Positions 945-62,756 of a DNA stretch of 64,000 nucleotides are shown one piece after another. The translations under genes and the position numbers were made by a program. The first letter of the stretch is position 1. Every line of letters starts with the position of its first letter. The stretch lies in the NCBI RefSeq assembly GCF_018977255.1, contig NW_024704743.1, positions 19,966,001 through 20,030,000 of the forward strand. The letters are read 5' to 3'. This DNA is from Callorhinchus milii. Lineage: Eukaryota. The notes below the pieces were generated by a model. It was not told the DNA's origin, did no database searches, and was given only the letters and a program-made list of their open reading frames with translations.

Positions 945-3482
945 ACAAGGGACAGAAAACCCTAGTGGGAGTAGTTTATAGACCCCCGAACAGCAGTCAC
1001 AGTATCTCTCAAAGTATAAATCAGGAAATTAGCAGAGCATGTAGTAAAGGAAAAACATTAATTGTGGGTGATTTTAATCTGCACATAGATTGGGACAACT
1101 AAATTGGGAAAAGTATGATAGAGGAAGAGTTTATAGAATGTATTAGAGATAATTATCTAGATCAGTATGCCGAGGAGCCAACCAGGGAACAGGCCATATT
1201 AGACCTTGTTTTGTGCAATGAAGCAGGACTGATCAGCAAACTGGAAATTAAGGCTCCTCTAGGGCAAAGTGATCATAATACGATGGAATTTAGCACTAAG
1301 TTAGAGAGAGAAGTAGTTAAGTCTGAAACAAAGGTTTTAAATTTAAGTAGAGCCAATTGTGCTGGTATGAGAGAGGATTTAGCCAAAATAAACTGGGAAA
1401 TTAGATTTAAGGATATGACAGTAGACCAGCAAAGGCAGACATTTAAGGAGATAGTGCAAAATTCCCAGCGAGCACGTATTCCTTTGAGGAATAAGAATGC
1501 CATGGGAAAGGTGGCCCAACCGTGGCTTACTAGAGCAGTTAGGGAAAGTATAAAGTTAAAGGAAGAAGCCTATAAAGCAGCTAAGATGAGTAGTAAACCC
1601 GAGGATTGGGAGAACTTTAGGGATCAACAAAGGAGAACCAAAAAAGTGATTAAGAGGGAGAAAATGGAATATGAGGGCAAACTAGCGAGGAACATAAAGA
1701 CAGACTGCAAGAGTTTTTATAAGTATATAAAGAGGAAGAGGCTGTCAAGGGTAAATGTGGGTCCGCTACAGTCAGAGACAGGGGGAATTATAGTCGGGGA
1801 CAAAGACATGGCAGAGTTATTAAACAAGTACTTTGCTACTGTCTTCACCTTAGAAGACACTGAAAACCTACCAAGCATAGAGGGGAACCAAGAAGAAAAT
1901 GTTAGCGAGTAACTTGGAGGAATTAATATTAGTAAAGAAATGGTTTTAGGTAAATTATCGTGTCTTAAAACTGATAAATCTCCTGGACCTGATGGCCTAC
2001 ATCCTGGGGTTTTAAAAGAGGTGGCTACTGAGATAGTGGATGGCTTGTCTTTGATCTTCCAAAATTCTCTGGATTCTGGAACGGTTCCCATTGATTGTAA
2101 GATTGCAAACGTGACAACACTATTTAAGAAGGGTGGGAGCGAAAAGATGGGAAACTATAGACCAGTTAGTCTGACATCAGTGGTGGGGAAAATTCTTGAG
2201 TCCTTAATTAAGGATGTCGTTATGGGATTCCTGGAAGACCATAACAAGATTAGGCAGAGTCAACATGGCTTTACAAAAGGGAAGTCATGCTTAACTAATC
2301 TTTTAGAGTTTTTTGAAGGTGTACCTAACAGGTTAGATAGGGGAGAACCAGTAGATGTAGTATATTTAGATTTTAAAAAGGATAAAAGAGTGGCTAACGG
2401 GTAGAAAACAGAGAGTAGGGATAAACGGGTCATTATCGAATTGGCAGGATGTGACTAGTGGAGTGCCACAATGATCAGTGCTTGGGCCTCAGCTATTTAC
2501 AATTTACATCAATGATCTAGACGAGGACATTGAATGTAACGTATCTAAATTCACGGATGACACTGAACTAGGTGGGAGAGTAAGCTCTGAGGATGATGCA
2601 AAAAGATTGCAACGGGATATATATAGGCTAGGGGAGTGGGCGAGTAGGTGGCAGATGGAATTTAATGTGAGGAAGTGTGAAGTTATTCACCTAGGTAGAA
2701 AAAATAGAAAAACAGATTATTTTCTAGAGGGGGAGAGATTAGATAGTGTTAGTGTGCAGAGGGATTTGGGTGTCCTTGTACACCAGTCTCAAAAAGTTAG
2801 TTTGCAGGTGCAGCAAGCAACTAAAAAGGCGAACGGCATGTTAGCGTTCATTGCAAAAGGTTTAGAGTACAAGAGTAGGGAAGTCTTGCTGCAACTGTAT
2901 AGGGCCTTGGTGAGACCGCACCTAGAGTATTGTGTGCAGTTTTGGTCTCCTTATTTAAAAAAGGACATACTTGCCCTAGAGGGGGTGCAGCGTAGATTCA
3001 CTCGGTTAGTTCCTGGGATGAGGGGACTGACCTATGAGGATTGGCTGAATAAACTAGGGCTATATTCTCTAGAGTACAGAAGAATTAGGGGGGATCTTAT
3101 TGAAACTTATAAGATTCTTAAAGGGCTGAATAAAGTAGACACAGAGGGTCTGTTTCCCCTGGTAGGAGAATCTATAACCAGGGGTCACAGTCTTAAAATT
3201 AAGGGTCAGCCTTTTAGAACAGAGTTGAGGAAACATTTCTTCACTCAGAGGGTAGTGAATTATGGAATTCACTACCCCAGAAGGCTGTAGATGCTCAGTC
3301 CTTGAACATCTTCAAGGCTGAGACTGACAGATTTTTAAAAAGCAGAGGGATTAGGGGATATGGGGATAGGGCAGGTAATTAGAGTTAGGTCTGAAGATCA
3401 GCCATGATCTTATCGAATGGCGGGGCAGGCTCGAGGGGCTGAATGGCCTACTCCTGCTCCTAATTGTTATGTTCTTATGTTC
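945..3482 (+). mobile_element. CR1-clade LINE, 5'-truncated, ORF2 disrupted
   Basis: APE C-terminus (GDFN, ILDLVL, SDHN), tether, RT motifs (KSPGPDG, NYRPVSLTS, QHGFTKGKSCLTNL, FTDD), LVRPHLEYCVQFWSP, 3' UTR hairpin and TTCTTATG-type tail. Confidence 0.97.
1115..3290 (+). pseudogene. CR1 ORF2 (endonuclease/reverse transcriptase) pseudogene
   Basis: Split over ORFs 1115-1912, 1940-2404 and 2478-3290 by in-frame stops (PQGS has become PQ*S) and by a deletion after YLDF near 2380. Confidence 0.93.
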
Positions 3483-6121: not shown

Positions 6122-6199
6122 GTTAGTCTGGCTCAGGTGTAGCACTCTTGCCTCTGAGTCAGAGTGTTATGGGTTCAAGCCCCAGGTGGGACTTTGAAC
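6122..6199 (+). mobile_element. tRNA-derived head of old Deu-type SINE
   Basis: gtagcactcttgcctctgagtcagag...gggttcaagcccca matches heads at 85, 27470 and 57985. Confidence 0.7.
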
Positions 6200-6343
6200 T
6201 GATGGTCTCGGTAGTCCAGCTCCTTAGCCAGGCGGGTCTGCAGTACTCCAGGGCACTGCTGATGACATCGCAGTCAGCTTGGCTCATTGGCAGAAATTGG
6301 ATGGGTAGACCAGTCACTGGGGGCAGGGAATCATCCCACTGAG
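6200..6343 (+). repeat. Unclassified structured repeat (family X), internal fragment
   Basis: Aligns by eye with the reverse complement of 19290-19435 and with 45600-45735. Confidence 0.85.
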
Positions 6344-6941
6344 CTAGTGCTGAAGGGTTGATATCCGGTGACTCTCCATCCTAAAAGGTTATTAAATAAA
6401 TCTCTATCCTTCTGAGGCCCTAATTTTCAAGGTGAGAGCAATATTTTTTTCTTTCTGTGAGAGAACGTACAGGCATTTTTGTCTGGTTAGGCATCTTGCA
6501 TGATACTTCATTTGATTTGAAAACAGAAGATTGCATAAAGGTACAAATGGCAAGCATAAGGCTTCATACTAAGTATATACTAAAAGCATTTGTGCTGAAG
6601 GAAATCCAGTGCAAAACCTCCCCTAGCAACCAGAATGGCGACAATTCAGCAGCATTTAGGAGAGGATGCTCCATTAAATGAGTTAGCTGAAAAACTCTGC
6701 AACATTACAATGCTCATTTAATAATATTTTAAACTGGTGTTTCCTTACATAATAAGATGGTTTTGGTAGAGGGCTATCATTACAGTTGAAGTTATTGACA
6801 TGCGGGTCCCCATTCTCTTCTAATTATGCAGCTGAACCATTGCAGAAATCAGTTTATAATCTGATTATAGACATCCAGTCTTAATAGTCGAATCAAATGA
6901 CAATTCTGAGCAATTAAAGCAGACTTCACAACAGTATCATT

Positions 6942-7730: not shown

Positions 7731-7813
7731 AATGAATAAGACTGATAGAAATTCAAGCAAAGATTACCTGGTCTGTAATGGAGGCTTGTTTGGGAATTTT
7801 TAAAAAAAATTGT

Positions 7814-8400
7814 GGTCAGCCGGGTGGGTGTCTGGCACATGGAGAAACCCATCACCACGCTAAAGAGTATCCAAACTAAACTGAGAATTCCATGCATCCC
7901 ACCTACACATGGAAATTCCAGAGATAGATTTCTGAAATAGAATGTGCACTCTCTCCCTGGAGGGACACATCCTGCTTATCTAATTCCAGAAAGCATTAGG
8001 CACAGGTTGGCAGGAGCCAAGGCTTGGGGACCCAGAGTGTGCGTTGGGGTATACTCCTGGAGTCTAACTGGCTAAAACCACAAAGCTTGCCATTGATAGT
8101 ACCGTTTGTCAAGCTTTCCCACTGCTTGACCAGCTAGGACCACCCTACCCGTTAGGGTTTTAGCTTGAAGGGTTAACAGGAGCCGTATGGGAGGATTTCC
8201 TGCCCTCAGTGACTGATCTCCCCCTCCAAGTTCTGTCAATGAGCCAGGCTGGCTATCATCAACAGGGCCCTGGAGTACTGCAAACCCTCCTTGTTCAGGA
8301 ACCTGACTGCCGAGACTGCCACGAAGTGCTGGCTCGATTCTGATATTCTGTTGCCAGAAATGTCACCTTGGAGTCAGTTCAGCTCCAAGGAGGCCTGACT
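7814..8400 (-). repeat. Unclassified structured repeat (family X), apparently complete copy of about 590 bp
   Basis: Spans all six other fragments. One end is shared with the 19.5 and 45.5 kb copies, the other with the 25.4 and 57.35 kb copies. Strand is arbitrary (A-rich end taken as 3'). Confidence 0.85.
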
Positions 8401-8459
8401 CCCGCTGTCTGGGAAGAATCAGACAAAGAAAGGAGGAAGCAGCAGATTTTCCACATAAC

Positions 8460-10290
8460 CTAGTATGCACTTTGTGCTTTCAGGCATATCTGCTGAATAG
8501 CTAAAAGCAAGAAAATATTTGAGATGAATGTTCATGGCTCTTCAATGAATGCCCAGAATGTCATCAATTACAAGACAAATATCTTCCAGAAGTTTTCAGC
8601 TATTATCAAGCAGAAATTAAGATTTTATGGAGGATGAAAAATTCTCTTTGGAGGGCAACCAGCAATCAATATCTTTGCACACTATTACAGTGTGTAAAAA
8701 AAAAAGCAATCAATGCGTAATCTTTTTTAAATCATCTGTTCATTTTGTGCAATGTGAGTGTCATTTCTGCATGGATTCCGGATGTCTTGAGAGAGTAGCC
8801 TGGCATGGGAAAACTGTGTCAATCAATAGTGATTCTGCAGTACAATTTTAAGGCTCAGTAAAGATGCTGCAAAACGTGCACCAACACCTGCTGCACATCC
8901 CATCGTTACCCATCTTTTGCATGTAGCCATTGAACGGTTCAAGGAATAACCTATGAGCAATGACTAGAAAAACAAGGGCTTTCCAGTCTTGAGAGAAGAT
9001 GACTCATGGGGGACCTTGTAGAAGTGTACAACATTTTAAATGGAATTGAAAAAGTAAACCCAGACCAATACTTCAGGATGTAATGAGTCAGTGGAACAAG
9101 AGGACATAGGTTTAGATTTCTGAAGGACAAATTCAGGAGATATACCAGGAAGTTTTTCTTAACTCGGAGAGTAATCAATGACTGGAACAGGTTGCCAGGA
9201 AAGGTTACTAGGACACTGGACTGATTTAAAAAGCAACTTGATGCTGTGAGGGGGAATGTGGGGGGACGGGGGGATCGGCTGGGGGGGTGTTCTGGAAGGC
9301 AAGATCGGATGCACCAAAGGGCCTTCTTCATCCAAACCAATCTTGTGATTGTGCAATCAAAATTGACGAGTTTCATGACATCGATGAGTTTGTCTTTCAT
9401 TTTCCTATAATATTCAAGTTTGCAAAGAAGCAGAATTGAGCACTGTTCAGACTCTGTGCGTCCACCATTGGGAGCAAATTACATTCCATGTGGCTCCTGT
9501 TGTGACATTGCAGTGGGTTTCTTTCCTAACTTGAAGCAGGGTATATCCATGAGTATTGGGAACCCCATTAGACAATTTAATTAACGAAGAAGGCACAGCC
9601 ACCTCAAAGAAGGCAAAGAAACTACATCTGATGGCTAGTGGAAGATGCTTTGCAAGTTATTTTTTCTCAGTGCAATTCTGACAAACATCCATCAGATACA
9701 GCTACAGATGGAAACAAAAGCACTGCTGATATACCGCATTGAGACACTGGTTATCTATAGCCTCCAGGTTGCTGATGAATGCAAAAATGCCACGAAGAAA
9801 CTAGAACACCAAACAATGATCTGGCTCCAGGAAGCAATCCCTGAAATCTGCAATGCAGGCTTTTTGCAGCAGCGTTCCAAAATAAAATGAAGGCAATCAC
9901 ACCTCTCAAGGGACTCTATGGACCAAGTTCTTTCTTTGCCAATTGCAGAACACTTGATCCACGGCTCAGATTTCACACGATGCTAACGACTGTGAAAATA
10001 TTCTTCAAGTCTTCCTTTGCAATAAAAAAAATCAGGTGTGATTTTGCCATTGACGTAGCTCGTAATGTGATCAACGCTGAACGTATAACACTTCTTGAAT
10101 TGTGGAGGAATCAAACCCAGTCATTGCTTGTGGTGTTGGCACTACATGCTCTCACAAAACCAGTCACTTTCGCATCTGTTGAAATGGCATTCATCCAGCT
10201 TAGATATGTTCAAGACAAGTGAAGGGTGTGCTTCACCGAAATGCAACTTGAATTCACAACACAATAAGGACACATCAAATATTTGAGCTT
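8460..10290 (+). pseudogene. Decayed hAT-superfamily transposase (CGGBP1-related type), interrupted by CR1
   Basis: Collinear motifs across frameshifts: LQDKYLPEVF, SINSDSA, HLLHIP/THLLHVAIE, PVVT-QWVSF, FFANCRTLDPR and LALHALTKPVTFASVEMAF (PxxSAxxERxFS catalytic-Glu motif). Confidence 0.75.
8951..9353 (+). mobile_element. CR1 3' fragment inserted in the hAT fossil
   Basis: Encodes GDLVEVYNILNG and FLTRRVINDWNRLP, followed by a 3' UTR and a tcttgtga-type tail. Confidence 0.88.
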
Positions 10291-13370: not shown

Positions 13371-14202
13371 GAAACCATAATCGATGGTTCCCGTTGCCAT
13401 GCTAACAGCAATAGCTGTGCTGGCTGTTATGCCAACCAAGAAGCATTCTTGAAGTATCCCAGCTTTAAAATGACTGTGATCATGTTTGAAAATATTTTGT
13501 GATGATTGCGAGCAGCAAGGAATCACAAGGCAGACCCTGATGATCAGCAAGTTAATCATGCAAACTCTCAACCTCAAATCTTGCTGAGGTTGATGGGCAT
13601 GTGGGAGAAAGACCCAGAAATGGAATAAAGTGGAGACACTTCCTTAGCTTGAATGACGTCTTCAACAAAAATATCTCAATGTAATTAATAAGATGCACCT
13701 GATCCCTTTCAGATTTCACAGAGCTTGTTTGCTTGAAGATAATTTAGAATGTTTTAGTCATGGCACAAATCGTACCTGGGTGCCCAAACCAATAACTACT
13801 TACATAAAAAAAGTAGACAAATATCCCTTCTGGGGTCTCTGCAATGATTGAAGTACCCATTACCACTCGTGTTGCTATTGACACATGGCTGATACTGTGT
13901 TTGCATTTTTTCTGAGAATATAAATCTATACTTCAATGCTAAACCATAATTGGCTTTCAGGAGTATGTATGAAGTACTGCACATATACACGGTTCAGAAT
14001 GACATTACATGATAATAATGTGTTTTGAATATTTTTACATAATATAAATGATCGTTTGTTTTGAGCTACCCAAATTTTTCTTCTATTCAAATAAAATTTG
14101 AATTTAAAATTACACATTTATACTTGTAAATAAATATATTTATAAATATACTTATAAACATGTATAAATTACCGTGTGTAAACTGGTTCAAATGTTCTTC
14201 TG

Positions 14203-14314
14203 ACTCAGGTCCTGTTAGCCTAGCAAGCCAAAGCCCTAATTGGTAGGATGGTCTGATATGAACAAGCAGCAGAAAGCTTGCCAGTGTTTCTCATGGGTTA
14301 AACCCCAGCAGTAT
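14203..14314 (+). repeat. Family X fragment
   Basis: gcaagccaaagccctaattggtaggatggtc...caagcagcagaaagcttgccag matches the reverse complement of 19232-19290. Confidence 0.75.
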
Positions 14315-16550: not shown

Positions 16551-17099
16551 AGTTTCCTTTTTAAACTGTTCTCTTTGTGCTGTACTTAACGCTTCATCAC
16601 CTAATTATTTTTTCCCATGGATTTTTCAGAGCTCAGCACAATACTTGCCCATCTAGCACGATCCTAACTATTGGGGCTTGGCTTTCAGTGTTGAAGATAT
16701 GTCTACATCTCCCAAGTTTGTCCTTGATAAAGTTTTTTTCTTTTAGCACTACTCTTGCATTCTATTCAGAACACAAGAGTCTTAATGTCTAATCATTGTT
16801 TTTCCTCTTACCTCTGGTCTCCAGTCCTCTACTCTCTCTCCCATCCTCTCCTACTCTGTTGCAGTATTCCTTGTCTTTCTATTCTGTCGATACTGCTGTA
16901 GAAGCTGCTCCTCAGAGTGTTTTTCTCTCTCACATAAACTTAAAGCTAAAAAATAGTAATCTACTCTACAAGCATAGAACAGCATATTAAATAAAACAGC
17001 ACAATCACAGCTAAATATAAAACAACTTTAGAATACAATTTCAATACAACAGTTTCATTAATATCCTCCCATTCATTTTCAATTCCATCCCACCCAATC

Positions 17100-19231: not shown

Positions 19232-19512
19232 ACTGCTTGCCTAGCTAAGACCACCCTACCCGTTAGGGCTTTGGCTTGCAGGGTAGGACCTGAATGGGAT
19301 GACTCCCTGCCCCTAGTGACTGGTCTGTCTTTCCAGGTCCTGCCGATGAGCCAGGCTGACTGTGCTGTCATCAGTAGTGCCCTGAAATACTGTGGACCCG
19401 CCTGGCTCAGGAACCGGACTACTGAGACCACCAGAGAGGGCTGACTCGATTCTGACATTCCGCTGCCAAGCATGTCACCTTGGAGCTAGTTCAGCTCCAA
19501 GGAGACCTCACT
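19232..19512 (-). repeat. Family X, 5' half
   Basis: Collinear with 8120-8400. Perfect 10-bp hairpins at 19347-19409 and 19478-19502. Confidence 0.88.
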
Positions 19513-19970
19513 TAACTCCCCTGTGCAAACAGGTTAATAGAGCTACTATTTGAGAAATACAAAGAGGATCCTAGAGATCAGCACTGTTATGCCTCCCAAG
19601 CATCATAAACTAAAAGATTCTTTGAAGCATTGAAACGGTAAATGAGCAGTGGCTGGAAAATGAAGTCAAAAAAGTGAGAAAAAAAACTGTGGGAGTGAAC
19701 AGCTAAAACACCAAATGAATAAAATATATTCAAGAGAGGATGATACTAAATTCTCATCTGATGCTGGATCTAACACACCCGGTGTTCTGGAAGATTTTGA
19801 ATTCATTGTGACAGGAGGAAGCCCATTGAGGAGAAATAAGAGTATGTAGATCAGATCCATTGTTTATCTGATAATGAGCTGAAGTTGCTTAGCACTTAAT
19901 TTTAAAATTCCATTGGAGTGCACAGATGTTTTGCTATTGTATCGGTGGACCTGATATCTTTGAGATTCCA

Positions 19971-20390: not shown

Positions 20391-21166
20391 TTTTCCCCAT
20401 GTACAGGAAACAATGCTAAACGTGGAGACACATTCACTGAGGGATGTCGACAGCATTATGATGGATTGTTTGTTTTATTAATTTCTCATGCTGCTGTTCA
20501 TAATCACATTTCTCGCACTGCACATGCTGACGTGCATCGCTATGAAGATCAAAGTCCATGTAGCACTTGATGGAATGGTACACTGAAGTAACAGCATCAA
20601 CATGTACATTTCTATATAATAGCAATTAACAGGCACGGTACAAAATTATACTGTGAAGACAAATGAATTGTTAATGCTACAACTGATAAATGTTCGAATG
20701 TTGTGTTGTAGCCTAAACATTATAACTTACATAATTATCTGCCATTGTATTGTAAACGCATTAATCCTGGAATAATTTAGCTCAGATTAATGTTAAAAAG
20801 ATTATTTTTCTTTTGGAAAAAAGGCTTTCATCAAAAATGCCCAATGGATTTCTTAAAAATGAAACTCAGGTAAAGCTCAATTTAACCTGAATTTCATTTT
20901 TAAGACCCGCATTGGCTGATTTTACTCAGTGCCTGTGATGATGTGTGTGCTGCCCGAAACTTGCCCGACTGTGCTCACTGCTGGTTGTGTGATCGCACAC
21001 AGAATGTGATGCACACACAGGTGAGCAGGTTCTGGGAATGCATACCCATCACATTGCACAGGCTGGTAATTGGCAACTGGCAATGCAGACGAGGTATGTT
21101 TCAGGATGGCGGCATTACATTTGATCACATGTCCATTCTTGGCTTGAAAAAAACCCTTAACTATTG

Positions 21167-22329: not shown

Positions 22330-23364
22330 ACAAGACTATGGGACTCTCTCCTGACAAACAGTTCCGGTCCGTGATTCCTTAAAATTGTATCAAAAAAAGT
22401 GAGAGGCAGAAAAGGCAGGGAGCAAAGCCAACTCTTATTCAAGTCACTGCTACAGTTATTTATGTAGCATTTCATTGGGGGGAAAAAACACACATAACCT
22501 TCTATGCATGTATGGGATTTATGGTGTCAAATGATACAAATCCTGGAAAACACCAGAAATTTCAGATCTAAATCTAAAGCTAAAACAGTTGATGTTGTGT
22601 CAATCAATAGCTTTGGAAAAAAGCTGAATGAATACCTGTCTGGACCCAAAGTTAATAGGGCTGAATAAATAGAGTAGCTCTGTGCTAATGTGATTACTTG
22701 GGAGATGCTGGACCTTGGGCTGCCATGTCAAGGCAGGAAGGAAAGTGGAATATAAACTTGAATAAATATACAGGAGTTTTGTTCAATTTATTTCACCCAT
22801 GACATCAATGAAATCATAGTGTTACAGCATAGAAACTATTCATCTCACCAAATTTGTGCTGGTGAGTTTTTTCCCATTTGAGCCTTCTAGTTTAATGCCA
22901 CTCTTCCTACTCGAATTAAGTAATATTAATAATAATCCTTGCATTTGATACAGCACTTCACCATATCGTTGAAACATCTCAAACTTTTTACAGGATTTTT
23001 TTTAACTGTAAAGTGTAAGGAATGTGTATTCGTAAATGATAAAATGGTGATAGTCTTGTTCTTGAAGCATATATTTAATTTCCTTTTGAAAGAATTTATG
23101 GATTTCTGTTTCAACAATGTTTTGTGGTAGAGAATTTCACAGTCCAATCCCACTGATCTCATTTCCTTATTTATCCACAGAATCTTCACCTTCAAAACAG
23201 CCCCCTTTGTTTTTACTGGAATATATTTGATTTATACTTACATCTCCTGTTTAAAATTATTTCTCCCTGTTGATAAACATTTCTGCTTTCCATTTGTTAT
23301 CTCTAGTTAGTCTCTATATAAATGAAAGGGAGATAATTGATCCACTGACAAGTGGAAATAATCC

Positions 23365-23480
23365 ACAGTCAAACCTGCTGAAGTAACCACCTCTATTCAG
23401 CAAGCACCTGCTGTCAACAACCATCCTAGAACAGTCCTGAATGACTTTCCATAATAAACCCCTTCTGATCAGCATTCACC
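23365..23480 (+). mobile_element. pogo/Tigger-like terminal fragment
   Basis: cagtcaaacctg...taaccacctctattcagcaagcacctg with repeated cacct subterminal motifs. Confidence 0.45.
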
Positions 23481-23639
23481 TGTCCAACAGACATTGTCAG
23501 AGGCCTGGGAGCGGATTATCTACCCGTTGTCTCAGACAGTGGCATTCACAAGGAAAAGGTGAAAATTAAAAATTCTTCTCGTGCTCATTTTTCTATTTCT
23601 TTAAATCTATTTCTGTTTGTTTTTAAGCAAAAAGAATAG

Positions 23640-24040
23640 ATTGTATTTTGAAAGTCTAAAGCTTGTGAATGTACCCCTAATTGATCTTACCTTTTACAAC
23701 AAATATGAATATCTAAAGCCTTACAATTATCTTTCACGAATTGTTTTTGTACTCGCTTGTAGCCTTTCTAGTCTCCCTCTTTGCAGTTTTAAAATATTCT
23801 TCAATTTTCTCTTAATTTGATTAGTCTGCCTATAAACCCTGAATCCTCTTTTTCAAAAAATCATATTTGATCTAATTTCCTTATTCATCCACAGAATCCT
23901 GGCCTTCAATACGGCCCCTTTTTCTTACTGGAATATGCTTGATTTATACTGCTTCCATCTCCTGTTTAAAATTTTCCCCCAGCTGATATACATTTCTGCT
24001 TGCCAGTTTTCTTCCTCCAGTTAATCTGAACAAGGTCCCT
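23640..24040 (-). mobile_element. Old CR1 ORF2 tether fragment; about 160 bp of it recurs at 23154-23312
   Basis: The minus strand gives QINW...NFKQEM...HIPVRK-like text, comparable to KINW...TFKEIV...RIPLRNK of the CR1 at 1.4 kb. Confidence 0.65.
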
Positions 24041-25285: not shown

Positions 25286-25418
25286 GTATCCATTCCAATA
25301 AACATCTCTGGAATTTCCATGTGTAGGTTGAATACATGGAACTCCCAGTTTGGTTGGGATATTCTTAAGATTGATGATGGGTTTCTGTATGTGTCAGACA
25401 CCAGGCTGACCAAAAAAA
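25286..25418 (+). repeat. Family X 3' end fragment with A7 run
   Basis: Reverse complement of 7814-7945; ends ggctgaccaaaaaaa. Confidence 0.82.
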
Positions 25419-25698: not shown

Positions 25699-26074
25699 TA
25701 ATAATAATAATAATAATAATAATCCTTGCATTTGATATAGCGCTTTTCACGTCGGGAGGACGTCCCAAAGCGCTTCACAGAACACACTGTAAAGTGAATT
25801 GACTGTATATTTGTGGGCGAACGCGGCAGCCAATTGCGTACAGCAATGTCCCACAAACAGTCATGGATTGAAAATGACCAATTTATTATTGTTTTGTTTT
25901 TTTGGAGGGATTATTATTAGGCGTGTGGAGTAAGGAAACTTGCCCAAGGTTTCGCCCTGACCTGCCTGGAATTGAACTCAGGTCTCTCGCTTGCAAAGCA
26001 AGTGCTCTAACCACTGAGCTACAGGACTCCACTATTGCAAAGCGAGTGCTCTAACCACTGAGCTACAGGACTCC
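25699..26074 (-). mobile_element. Young SINE, full length, with tandemly duplicated head
   Basis: Near-identical to 7410-7730. 44-bp duplication at 25991-26034 and 26035-26078. Possible TSD ctacat. Confidence 0.95.
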
Positions 26075-26187
26075 ACTACATGTGGAACAGGTAAAGTTTA
26101 AGTTTATTCTTAAACTTATTATTATTGAAACTTTATTATTATTGAAGTTTAAGACATTCAGTGCTTAATAAATCTCATCTATATGTA

Positions 26188-26502
26188 GGAGTCCTGTAGG
26201 AGTCAGTGATTAGAGCACTCCCTCACAAGCGAGAGGCCTGGGTTCGATTCCCGGCAGGGCTAAACCTTGGGCAAGTTTTCTTACTCCACACAACTGATAA
26301 TAATCCCTCAAGAGAAAAAACAATAATAATTTGGTCACTCAATCCACAACTGTTTGTGGGACACTAGTGTACGCAATTGGCTGCCACGTTTTCACCCACA
26401 AAATATACAGTTAATTCACTTTACAGTATACTCTGTGAAGCGCTTTGAGACGTCTAGAAGACTTGAAAAGCGCTATATCAAATGCAAGGATTATTATTAT
26501 TA
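26188..26502 (+). mobile_element. Young SINE, full length
   Basis: Head with B box GGTTCGATTCC, body and tail. Confidence 0.95.
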
Positions 26503-27464
26503 ATCTATCCCCACAAATATTCTGTGTCTACCTGCAGGAGATGGATATGGGCTGATATTGAAATATTTTTGCTGTTGTGAATCCTACATTAATGTAATTG
26601 ACATGTAATTCCAAAATAAAGCCCTGTGATCTCTGACCGATTATTTGAAATGGGAATTTTTTTACATAGAAACTCCAATTCAAAAATTATAAAATTCGAA
26701 TTGTTAAATAGAAATTATTTAGACAAAATGATTTGCATAACATATTTTCTGATATGCAGGTAGTCTTTTAACCAGAAGAATAATAAATTTGCTGAGAAAA
26801 GATCACAGTAATTAATTTGAAAGAACAGTGAACGATTTAAAATGTATTTGGATCCCCTTTCAAGAAAACTTCTGTTCGGTTAAAAAGCCCATGTTTTGCC
26901 ATTTAAAACTCTTTTTGAATAGATTTGCTACATGTGCTATTAATAACTGTTATTATTGATTATTATTATATTATAAATACATTACCTGTATATTAATTGT
27001 GGTAATATTAATTATTATAATTAATAGAATATATTCACCACAGTTTTACAGTAGGAGACATGTATTATTAATGATGTTTATGGAAGTATGGGCCAATATT
27101 GAAGATTTCCAGTCTGGTTATTTCACAATAATTGCTGCAATTAATCATTAGCTTTAAGCATTTGTTCCACTTTTAAAAATGCCCTTCTAAAATAAATGTT
27201 CATTTGCTAGGTTAGCACTTCCATCATATTGAAATAATTATCATATCCTTACATTTTCTAAGTACAATATATGCTTGTTGCTAAAAATACATTAGAAATA
27301 GGTTTTAAAAGGAATCCAAAAATGAGCATGAGAATAATTTTTAATTTTCACCCTTCCTTGTAAATGCTACTGTGAAACAATGGGCAGGTAATCTACTCTT
27401 AGGCCTCGGTCAGTGTCAGTGACAGGCCATCAAGGGATACATAAGGGTAGAAGGGGATCAATTT

Positions 27465-34585: not shown

Positions 34586-35221
34586 TAATCTAAAAACTGT
34601 GATCGTCAGCGTTGATATTTTGTTCAGTCACCTTTTCCCCTAAACCCCCACCCCACCCGTCTCCCCCCACACCCACCCACCCACCCTCCTCAGCTCTCTC
34701 CCCTAACCCCAGCTCAGGTATGCTGGGTGAAGTGCTTTGACATGTCTCACGATATAAGAGGTACTGTATAAATGTAAATTGTTGTGCACCAAGCTATCTG
34801 ATGACCTAAGAGTGACTGCCCAGGGGATGGAGGAATGAAAAGATAAGCAGATTAACTTTGGCGGTGAACTAATTGCGTGGTGACATGTTTGCCAATTGAA
34901 TAACGGAGTCAAGTTGTAGCAGTATTAGTTTTAAAGTTCCTGAGCAGGTTCACAGTTCTCCAAGACCCTGTTGATGACGCACTAGACACCTTGGCTAATT
35001 GGCAGCCTCACTTTGTGCGATCTAAACATTTTATAATTCTTCACAACTGGATTCTGCTGAATTCCCACACCCATAAGATGTAAAGCAGAATTGCTATTCC
35101 TTCGCACTTAGACCCAGCAGAGGCTTCATGGGGAGCTTAAATTGGCCATCACCTTCACAAGAAATTCCACATGGAGTGACTTTTGTTTTCTCTGCAGTGT
35201 TGAGTCCATGGTATCAAGTGT

Positions 35222-39130: not shown

Positions 39131-39870
39131 GATTATTTTCTAGAGGGGGAGAGACGAGGTAGTGTTAGTTTTCAGAGGGATTTGGATGTTCTTGAACACC
39201 GGTCACAAGAAGGTACAGCAAGCATCTATGAAGGCTAATGCCATGTTGGCGTTCATTGCAAAAGGGTTAGAGTACAAGAGTAAGGAAGTCTTGCTACAGT
39301 TGTATAAGGCCTTGGTGAGACCACACCTAGAATACTGTGTGCAGTTTTGGTCTCCTTATTTAAGAAAGGACATACTCGCCTTAGAGGGGGTGTAGCGTAG
39401 ATTCACTAGGTTGGTTCCTGGGATGAGGTTGACCTATGAGGATAGGTTGAGTAAACTAGGCCTATATTCTCTAGAATATAGAAGAATTAGAGGTGATCTT
39501 ATAGAAACCTATGATTCTTATGGGTCTTGACAGGGTAGATGCTGTGAGGCTGTTTCCCCTAGTTGGAGAATCTAAAAATAGGGGTCATAGTCTCAAGAAT
39601 GAGGGTCAGCCTTTTTGAACTGAGTTGAGGAAACATTTCTTCACGCAGAAGGTAGTGATTTGGGGAATTCTCTACTTCAGAAGGCTGTGGATGCTCAGCC
39701 CTTGAACATATTCAAGACTGAGATTAATAGATTTCTAAAGGATAGCAGGATTAAGGGATACGGGGATAGGGCGGGTAAATGGAATTAGGTTAGAAGATCA
39801 GCCATGATCTTATTAAATGGTGGGCAGGCTCGAGGGGCCAAATGGCCTATTCCTGCTCCTACGCCTTATG
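39131..39870 (+). mobile_element. CR1 3' fragment, same family as 945-3482
   Basis: Highly similar to 2715-3475 (LVRPHLEYCVQFWSPYL and the same 3' UTR). Confidence 0.95.
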
Positions 39871-45149: not shown

Positions 45150-45495
45150 TCGACCTCACTCAGTTGGTAGCGCTCTCAGAAAGTCAGAAGGCTGTTTGTG
45201 GGTTCAAGTGCTGGTGGTGTACTCCATTGTTGGAGGTGCTGGCCTTCACATGAGAGATAATACGAAGTCCCATTTGTCTAATCAGGTGGATATTAAAGAT
45301 CCCATTGGCACTATTTTAAAAGAGAAGGGAGTTCCTCCCAGTGTCCTGGCCAACAAACCCCCAAGTAAAATTGGTTACTCATTTCACAGCTGTTAGTGGG
45401 ACATTGCTGTGTGCAAACTCATTGTGGCATTCGCCTACAAAATACAGTCATGACACCTTTGAAGTATATCCTGTGGAGCGCTTTGAGATATCCTT
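45150..45495 (+). mobile_element. Old Deu-type SINE
   Basis: Head, central block and truncated tail. Confidence 0.78.
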
Positions 45496-45518
45496 GCTCC
45501 CGGGGGGGGAAGAGAGAG

Positions 45519-45899
45519 GGTAAGGGTTTCCTTAGAGCTGAACTAGCTCCAAGGTGACTTGTCTGGCACGGAATGTCAGAATTGAGGCAATCCTCTATGG
45601 CAGTCTCGGTAGGCCAGTTCCTGAGCCAGGTGAGTCCATAGTACTCCAGGGCAATGCTGATGACAGCCTAGCCAGCCCGGCTCATTGACTTGGAAGAACT
45701 GACCAGTCATTCGGGTTAGGGACTCTTCCCACTCAACTCCCATGAACCCTGCACGCCAAAGCCTTAACACGTAGGGTTGTCCGAGCTGGAGAATCAGCAG
45801 TAAAGCTTGCCAGGCACTGCTCTCAATAGCAAGCTATGCAGTTTTGGCTGGTGAGACTCTAGCAGTATCACAGTGCACACTCTAGGGTCCCCAAGTCTT
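45519..45899 (+). repeat. Family X, 5' two-thirds
   Basis: Collinear with the reverse complement of 8020-8400; starts with the terminal hairpin at 45530-45554. Confidence 0.87.
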
Positions 45900-56189: not shown

Positions 56190-57140
56190 GAAAAGTCTGA
56201 GACTACAGGAATGTCATTTATGAAATGCAACTGGTAGAACTGAATACTGTACTGTATACTGACATTCTGAAATTGTGTTTGATTACCCAGGGAATCAGGA
56301 AAATTTCTTAAATATGTTCTTGCATGTTTCATCTCAGATTATTCAGAATTAAATACAGATTGTGAAAATATATAGAGTACAGGGGGACATTTGTCTTAGG
56401 CACCGGGAATCTTAAGATCTGCAACTTCCAAATCAATATTTCATTCAGCGTTGACACCAGACCAGTTTTGTACATTTCAAATTGATGCAAGGACACAATC
56501 CTCCACTGTGTACACTAAGTTCATTCTTACATTTGAATCCCCATAAAAAACACGAGGCTTTTTGCATGCAAGTATTTAATTCCTTGAATAAAATGGAATC
56601 TTATTATAACTCCCTCTTTCCTTGCTATTCTTGGATATCAAAGTTCAGTCAATTTGGATATAATTACATAAAGCCACAGAAATATACTGGCTCTTTCTGG
56701 GATGTCATATGAGCTCCTTTATTCTACCTCTCGTCTGAACACTGTAGCAACAGATGGGACAATTGCACTACTGTTTCTTCTCCATTTAATTTCTAAATAG
56801 ACTGCGCCTCGATGAGTTTACGTTCTCATTTTACAAAGTACTTACTGTGAAATTAAATGGAAGTTCTAGATTCAGCATCTCATTCTCACCCAAACCAGTA
56901 CCAAAACCCATGATTAACATTTCACACATCTTACTAAATAGTTAGTATAGATTTTTTAGATCAACAGGAAGCAAACTCTGCTAGCCAGACAGACAAGCCC
57001 AGCATAAGAATATTACATAACAATACATAATTATATAGTACACATCCAACCAGTTATTCAGATTCTTATCTGAAAAAAGAGAGACTTTAGTTCCTATTCA
57101 CACAAGACCTTTGGACCAATTTACCAAGATGCTTTTTACA

Positions 57141-57368
57141 CCCCAAACAGTATCCCAACACACAGTCTGGGATCTTGGCTCTTCACAATTTGCCTAATGC
57201 TCTCCCAAATTAGCAAGGTGCAACCCTCCAGGGAGAGTGCATTCCATTACAGACACAGAGACATGTCTACGTGGAGGTAGCAGATGTGGAATTCCTGTCT
57301 GTTTTCGATGCTCTTAAGCCCGGTGATAATTGTCCGCATGTGTCAGGCACCTGACTGATGAAAAAAAA
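57141..57368 (+). repeat. Family X 3' third, diverged, with A8 run
   Basis: Reverse similarity to 7814-8060. Confidence 0.72.
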
Positions 57369-61850: not shown

Positions 61851-62756
61851 ACGTTTGTACAAATGAAACTAAATTATTGTCCAGATTATAATGAATACAA
61901 AATAAATGTTTTTTGTTGATTTTCTCTGGATTAAACTTTTGTTAATGTATCATTTACAGCACGTTTAGGGAATTGTTAAAAAAAGAGCTTTCTCAAAAAT
62001 TCCGTACACGTGATGTAAACCATACATTAACAAAAGTTCTGTATTTCAAGAGCCTTGAGGTACAACAGATGTGTGCAATAAAACAATACCAAAAAAGAAC
62101 TTGTACAAAAACCTGATATATTTGCAATTTGAAATACATACGTTATGTGTTACCCACTGAGGGTTTTTTTTGGGAGGGGGGTCGTGGGTTGGGCTAATAT
62201 TTAACCTACTCCCTTTTGAAATTTCTGTGCGAAGAATCAGTAAAAAAAATCTAATTCAGAAAAGGTTTGTGTCTGTAAAAATGTAATGAGGTGTCAAGGG
62301 AGTTGCCATATCCCAGATTCTACGCAGCTAGACTTGGAACAGTACATTGAATGAAGCTCACCGACAATCTTTTGCCCTTCCCCCACTGAGAACAAAATTG
62401 TCGTTATGAGGAATCATCAGCATACCTTTTTATACAACATCACTTCAAAACTAGAGTTGCATTTATCTAGGGACATTTGCAGAAAATAGTATCATTTAAC
62501 GAATCATTTTCTGTCAAAACCTTTCAAATGTGACACTACTATCAATCCCATATATATGATGGTGCAAGCTGAATAATCAGATATGTAGCAACCTTCACAG
62601 GACACTCAAAGGCATCATATCCAAACTTTGAATGTAATTTTCTTCATAAAGTCTGAAAATTCACTCAGTAACTAAATGCAACAATCAAAGTTTTGAATAA
62701 ACTATGCACATTATACAGCATAAATAACTAACTCATTATAATTTTTACATTTTTGT

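Follow-up and report, generated by a model that had tools for sequence, protein, structure and literature searches.

An old, abundant and A-tailed non-coding repeat of about 600 nt with a common front boundary in the genome of Callorhinchus milii

Introduction

LINE insertions produced by target-primed reverse transcription (TPRT; L1/Tx1, Vingi, RTE and similar APE-type clades) are commonly truncated at the 5' end and carry an A tail at a fixed 3' end; they lack terminal repeats, reach high copy numbers and decay neutrally. The repeat family described here was found in a 64,000-nt stretch of the Callorhinchus milii genome (contig NW_024704743.1, positions 19,966,001 to 20,030,000; hereafter, the window) and has all these traits in common with such insertions. 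It differs from them in that its front ends cluster at a single motif, that ORF2 was not found beside the copies in the window and that no significant TSD was found.

Another abundant fish retroposon is the CoeG-SINE of the coelacanth, probably a G-rich element. CoeG-SINE insertions measure 1,018-1,362 nt (PMC4255032) versus about 600 nt for the present family. Bipartite LINEs and headless RTE SINEs (RTE-N1/N2_Lch, RTESINE1/2, Bov-A; PMC5786205) are likewise non-coding, have fixed ends and lack a small-RNA head, but the RTE-N elements are shorter (195-290 nt in the table of PMC5786205, versus 600 nt) and the tail of the present family is plain A.

In the same genome, the CmiSINEs (SINE2-1_CM and SINE2-1B_CM) and SacSINE1-CM are also retroposed and fall in a similar divergence range, the average divergence of C. 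milii SINEs being 12.6-22.4% (PMC5499810). These SINEs have a tRNA-Ala head, a CORE or Deu domain and an L2-2_CM tail, whereas the present family has none of these parts and aligns separately. Ten C. milii repeat consensi, three of them LINE-like and one of unknown identity, were deposited as DQ524329-DQ524339 (PMC1845163). No description of the family was found in the literature search; Repbase, Dfam and DQ524329-DQ524339 were outside the comparison, so the family may already be catalogued.

Results and Discussion

Copies of the family in the window

The window consists of vertebrate DNA of about 40% GC, with many CR1 and L2 pieces and tRNA-Ala-headed SINEs. Nine pieces of a repeat family of about 600 nt were detected in it (Table 1); they showed 74-83% identity to the reference copy (7814-8400) in local alignments and made up about 3.4% of the window. 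The seven pieces listed in an initial annotation of this DNA were homologous, as that annotation had stated (blastn of 7814-8400, E 1e-64 to 7e-9), and two more had been overlooked: 34844-35005 (nhmmer E 2e-36, the piece being itself part of the profile; blastn E 4e-13 at 34858-35005) and the weak piece 16642-16694, which was recovered by the profile search and lay outside the set from which the profile was built. The copies were 8-28% away from the window consensus, the copy at 19232-19525 being the nearest (8% divergent).

Table 1. Coordinates of the family pieces and of the main features of the reference copy (window positions).
Feature	Position	Strand	Evidence
Reference copy, about 600 nt, the sole two-ended copy in the window	7808..8416	- (sense)	Homology; run contig depth confined to 7802-8421
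5' boundary of the reference: CCCAG step (8413-8409) and decayed G-rich run ahead of the first hairpin	8391..8416	-	Loose-end consensus at 8392 in three of four runs
Hairpin H1 of the reference, perfectly paired over 8 bp (over 10 bp in the 19 kb copy)	8366..8390	-	
Stem AAAGCTTG/CAAGCTTT	8082..8117	-	Stem search
Stem around TTCCATG/CATGGAA	7885..7918	-	Stem search and sequence
5' half copy; perfect H1 at 19478-19502, 10-bp stem at 19347-19409	19232..19525	-	
5' two-thirds copy; opens with CCCGG and a G run, directly after a Deu-type SINE	45499..45899	+	
Old 5' piece, 28% divergent, overlooked earlier; same 5' boundary	34819..35005	+	
Internal piece	6199..6345	+	
Internal piece	14196..14314	+	
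Weak internal piece	16642..16694	-	E 3e-4
5'-truncated 3' piece; stem-loop GTCAG/CTGAC at 25393-25410, 7-A tail at 25412-25418	25286..25418	+	
5'-truncated 3' piece; 8-A tail at 57361-57368	57135..57368	+	

Orientation, ends and target site

The sense strand of the reference was taken to be the minus strand of 7814-8400, because the A run stands behind the 3' end on that strand. Three copies reached a fixed 3' end; an A run followed it directly in two of them (7 A and 8 A, Table 1), while in the third, the reference, the run was a mixture of A and T. In all four of the sequencing runs described below, the loose-end consensus showed a T run at the tail position. A 5-bp stem-loop (GTCAG/CTGAC) lay immediately ahead of the tail and was intact in the copy at 25286-25418. 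The three copies reported to stop at this end were found, but the terminal motif ggctgacc given for them was not general, since the copy at 57135-57368 ended in GACTGATG followed by its A run.

At the other end, all four window copies that reached H1 began at a common C[CA]C[AG]G step followed by a purine-/G-rich run, with 23, 23, 31 and 38 nt between the step and H1. The chance probability of this shared start motif was about 1e-4, for a motif picked after inspection. The common stop on the H1 side thus held, with different dimensions: four copies instead of three, extending 23-38 nt past H1 instead of about 10. When the 1-kb flanks upstream of eight pieces were compared, only four short matches (60-83 nt) were obtained, none of which adjoined the starts of two copies. 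On the sense strand, the 5' boundary is closely followed, within the element, by a splice-donor-like GGTAAG (45515-45525; loose-end consensus at 8392).

This front boundary, kept in four of four copies with unrelated upstream flanks, is what a stand-alone non-autonomous retroposon would show if its G-rich 5' boundary were a true transcription start. Such a unit would consist of a LINE 5' UTR joined to a short LINE tail (bipartite, RTE-N/Bov-A-like), or would derive from a master with a host promoter, and its mobilisation in trans would fall to an RTE-like LINE. Derivatives of RTE and Vingi elements with such a bipartite build are on record (PMC5786205), and the last 35 nt of the three tail-bearing copies aligned in register with the BovB 3' terminus given in the supplement of PMC5786205. 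The alignment score was matched by 0.15%, 1.6% and 1.6% of random 60-mers from the window for the three copies respectively, values that are optimistic because the motif was chosen post hoc, among several candidate tails. Moreover, the antisense strand of the reference scored just one point lower against the same terminus, the RTE tails in that passage of the supplement end in CAA/TAA-type repeats and not in a plain A run, and the words ggctgacc, ctgaact, ccctaac and aaagcttg had no match in that supplement. A stand-alone unit is regarded as unlikely, though as an explanation to be kept in mind.

Two copies (25286-25418 and 57135-57368) had lost their front, each from another internal point, but kept an intact tail. 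Within the window the 5' end was kept by four pieces and the 3' end by three, with no 3' excess.

The ends formed neither inverted nor direct repeats, in agreement with the earlier remark that no clear TIR was visible, and neither TG...CA ends nor a CTRR terminus were found. No significant TSD was found at the complete copy, a single old one: the best candidate scored 8, and 59 of 1,500 random pairs scored at least as high. This candidate was rejected; it was not significant, it was weaker in the X7 and X17 orthologues, and its 5' half was the element's own start. Insertion in both orientations and a 10-bp hairpin near one end would suit a hairpin-ended DNA element (MITE/Helitron-like) or a solo LTR, the former having been among the options initially proposed. 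The absence of inverted or direct end repeats, of TG...CA and of a CTRR terminus, together with an A tail at one end, speaks against both, and this origin has only a very slight chance of being correct.

Stems, folding and covariation

The stems named in the initial annotation were recovered where it had placed them: 10 bp at 19478-19502, 10 bp at 19347-19409, 8 bp at 8082-8117 and a core of 7 bp at 7888-7914. Its description of the element as a chain of stems was right for the individual stems, but the overall enrichment over chance was merely modest. Perfect stems of at least 8 bp numbered 4 in the window consensus (0.7 expected, p 0.005), 4 in the 19 kb copy (0.3 expected) and 3 in the reference (0.7 expected; p 0.045, marginal). 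Of the eight copies searched, five had no such stem, and 3 were present in a CR1 control of 600 nt.

Folding energies gave z scores, for sense and antisense respectively, of -1.05 and -1.77 in the reference, -2.0 and -3.2 in the window consensus, -1.7 and -2.7 in the 5' half of the consensus, and -1.2/-2.2 and +0.1/-0.7 in two further copies. Controls from the same window ranged from -3.3 to -4.4 for tRNA-SINEs and from -1.4 to +1.9 for L2 ends, and were -3.3 and -4.2 for the CR1 3' end. Single copies of the family (z +0.1 to -2.2) therefore fold more weakly than the tRNA-SINE and CR1 controls.

In six partial copies, 84% of the 157 cells of the five named helices were able to pair. None of the 38 pairs was changed on both sides in these copies, a sample of low power, and RNAalifold returned just 13 pairs (-3.4 kcal/mol). 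Covariation (0 of 38 pairs) and the sense fold of the reference (z -1.05) thus gave the outcome that had been named beforehand as refuting the initial interpretation, namely values no better than in shuffled controls. Dead copies of one master are not expected to covary, so this covariation result can neither settle the question nor test whether the fold of the master had a function. The master RNA carried several real hairpins, to a degree that is ordinary for retroposon tails of C. milii, and pairing is not under selection as the copies decay.

A cellular structured RNA outside Rfam, retroposed and provided with its A tail during LINE-mediated copying, might also have fixed ends and several long stems, and two of the stems need G-U pairs that form on the sense strand only (read from the alignment). 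Such an origin is nevertheless highly improbable: the sense fold is weak (z -1.05 in the reference, -1.2 and +0.1 in copies, -1.7 to -2.0 in the window consensi), the antisense strand folds better than the sense strand, covariation was lacking and pol III boxes were absent.

Known RNA families and ribozymes

No element sequence matched Rfam at the gathering score, and nothing credible appeared up to E 10 in three copies. The best sub-threshold matches on the three copies had E values of 0.027, 6.3 and 0.021, with scores that fell far short of the gathering level, and the 10 gathering-level matches in the window were all tRNA-SINE heads. This agrees with the earlier failure to match the element to a known RNA family and leaves the proposed retroposition of a known ncRNA without support in the three copies searched. 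A tRNA or 5S head was likewise missing, as had been noted: Rfam gave no small-RNA head, 7SL included, and the B box was absent in five of five copies checked. Of the possible likenesses to LF-SINE, the Hero 3' UTR, twister, pistol, telomerase RNA and DIRS ends, those covered by Rfam were searched and gave no match.

Ribozymes have been described in non-LTR elements. With this precedent, and with a sharp boundary that adjoins a G run and a hairpin of 10-14 bp, the front end could result from cleavage of a longer LINE RNA, by a ribozyme within it or at a nuclease site, which would free the 600-nt tail as a template. The search with permissive descriptors (eight copies and the consensus, both strands) did not, however, raise HDV-like or hammerhead cores above background, contrary to the ribozyme carrier that the initial annotation had offered as an option. 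The HDV-like descriptor gave 4 overlapping matches in the reference only and none in the seven other copies or the consensus, and shuffled sequences gave 0-7. The hammerhead word CTGATGA was present, but no GAAA-closed core was found in the consensus. Rfam ribozymes were not found up to E 10 in three copies, and the copies hold about 6 nt ahead of the G run. Degenerate or new ribozyme classes could have escaped both searches. Release of the tail by RNA cleavage is accordingly judged very unlikely.

Abundance and age in public sequencing runs

Four of 24 listed runs, carrying three organism labels, were matched to 7740-8640 at 80% likeness. For organism A, 30,693 of 6,922,088 contigs matched in X1 and 8,172 of 1,663,283 in X5, the latter being a run guessed to be RNA, whose count says nothing about expression. 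The corresponding figures were 21,034 of 7,114,053 in X7 (organism B) and 15,570 of 13,493,220 in X17 (organism D). Depth was 0-58 outside 7802-8421 and rose to between hundreds and hundreds of thousands inside these limits; depth does not equal copy number, and the claim is limited to thousands of distinct matching contigs.

Most matching contigs were less than 95% alike. The 20 in-element differences shown were majority letters in all four runs, and majority letters common to the runs fit a single old master. In X7 and in X17, one contig with about 9% divergence crossed from the reference into its own flank at the 5' junction, so that the reference insertion is older than the split of those organism labels.

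In X1, depth peaked at 377,000 near the tail and fell to 53,000 at H1 (about 7-fold), a drop of which divergence of the reference may explain anything from a small part to all (rough binomial check). Since the drop is confounded in this way and four window pieces keep the front end versus three the tail, direct evidence for 5'-truncation polarity comes only from the two tail-intact copies.

Search for a coding parent

Pfam gave no match in any of the six frames of the reference, in which no meaningful ORF had been noted at first sight. Pfam was also without matches in 27 frames upstream of six pieces (those at 25286, 57135 and 16642 being left out), a six-frame scan for the LINE-knuckle motif gave no convincing match, and exact-pattern scans gave none in viral or in metagenome contigs.

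Off-frame translations were searched against proteins to catch read-through into ORF2. These searches gave 1 match among 41 candidates, none among 143, none, and 4 matches respectively, and the RT domain was absent from all the proteins matched. One of the latter, P0003, was discarded as a repeat-protein artefact. Two C. milii UniRef models, a carboxylesterase (P0001, residues 207-259) and COPS5 (P0002, about 276-363), terminate in a copy of the repeat in the same frame; these ends are likely gene-model artefacts, or possibly the product of exonisation. P0004, 71 aa from a 902-nt contig, was a more divergent relative (50% identity in off-frame translation) and could come from an older subfamily or from another species.

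The loose-end consensus of X1 contained 9 extra letters beyond the G run, which read F-P-G. At the COPS5 locus, P0002 also reads F-P-G just ahead of the G run, where the reference aligns F-P-D-S-G, which places the boundary motif at an independent locus and lengthens the unit by just about 9 nt. The loose ends of X7 and X17 were A-rich and the F-P-G letters were not clear in them, and the P0002 residues upstream of F-P-G resemble the reading of a local SINE. With a gain of about 9 nt, SINE-like residues beyond it and no such letters in X7 and X17, a longer parent was not found in the present data.

Origin of the family

The family is a real, abundant and old retroposed repeat, and for the most part an ordinary one. 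It is a fresh or already catalogued addition to a known type of retroposon, with the fixed 5' boundary as its sole odd trait. We consider it probable that the family is an old, very abundant, A-tailed, non-coding unit of about 600 nt derived from a LINE, likely from its 3' UTR, which was copied by TPRT with, likely, a preferred cut point before the G-rich run. The existence of the family, its two fixed ends, its A tail, the two front-truncated copies with intact tails, its abundance and an age above the split of the organism labels are established. In favour of an origin from a LINE tail stand the A run behind the fixed 3' end, the front-truncated copies, the lack of terminal inverted repeats, of a B box and of an Rfam family, the many divergent contigs that fit one old master, the lack of covariation and, as a hint, the F-P-G letters beyond the G run. 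Of the options offered by the initial annotation, a non-coding retroposed element derived from a LINE UTR is thus the best reading, and the others found no support when tested.

If the family arose from a LINE tail, a LINE protein would bind the 3' stem-loop or the A tail of the RNA, a genomic nick would provide the priming site, and the RNA would be copied from the tail forward. Copying would mostly stop, or the template would mostly start, at the C[CA]C[AG]G step, and products would sometimes end earlier. The hairpins would then be relics of the fold of the master RNA, now decaying neutrally. Since both H1 and the G run are present in the copies, stalling at these features cannot explain the boundary; its cause must lie upstream, or the template starts at the step.

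Several points count against a plain LINE 3' UTR. The common start of four of four H1-reaching copies is not predicted by random truncation. No ORF2 remnant was found upstream, by Pfam for six pieces or by flank comparison for eight. The window shows no excess of 3' over 5' parts, and no significant TSD was found at the complete copy. A GC-balanced 3' UTR of 600 nt is long for most LINE clades. An origin from a 3' UTR is compatible with a stand-alone unit, as a subfamily could go back to a master that was itself truncated.

It is quite unlikely, in our estimate, that the family represents a headless SINE-like element composed only of the folded 3' UTR of a LINE, which would owe its precise front end to an undescribed RNA motif that cleaves itself or to an internal start, and which, although lacking a pol III promoter, would have multiplied to many thousands of copies in chimaeras.

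If the LINE-tail origin that we prefer is correct, the finding carries little weight and adds one more dead retroposon family to repeat libraries. Masking the family would clean annotations, given its share of the window (3.4%) and its presence at the ends of two UniRef gene models from C. milii. Mechanistically, only the fixed front end is of interest: if a LINE RNA had a strong site of stopping or cutting that could be mapped, this would show a route from a UTR to headless non-autonomous elements.

Other repeats and palindromes in the window

The copy at 45499 begins within the tail of a Deu-type SINE (45190-45500), and the last part of this SINE was absent behind the copy. Short imperfect palindromes were observed at 14116-14169, 20822-20934 and 61934-62038, the first being AT-rich and located just ahead of a family piece. 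Two repeats were present as pairs with no other match in the window: 23154-23313 and 23868-24027 (about 81%, direct), and 23479-23659 and 27249-27426 (78%, inverted). Two tRNA-Ala SINE copies in inverted arrangement formed an imperfect palindrome of 790 nt at 25711-26502. The remnant of a CR1-type ORF2, in which long stretches are still open, occupied positions about 1040-3471, and a 3' piece of the same CR1 family was located at 39131-39870.
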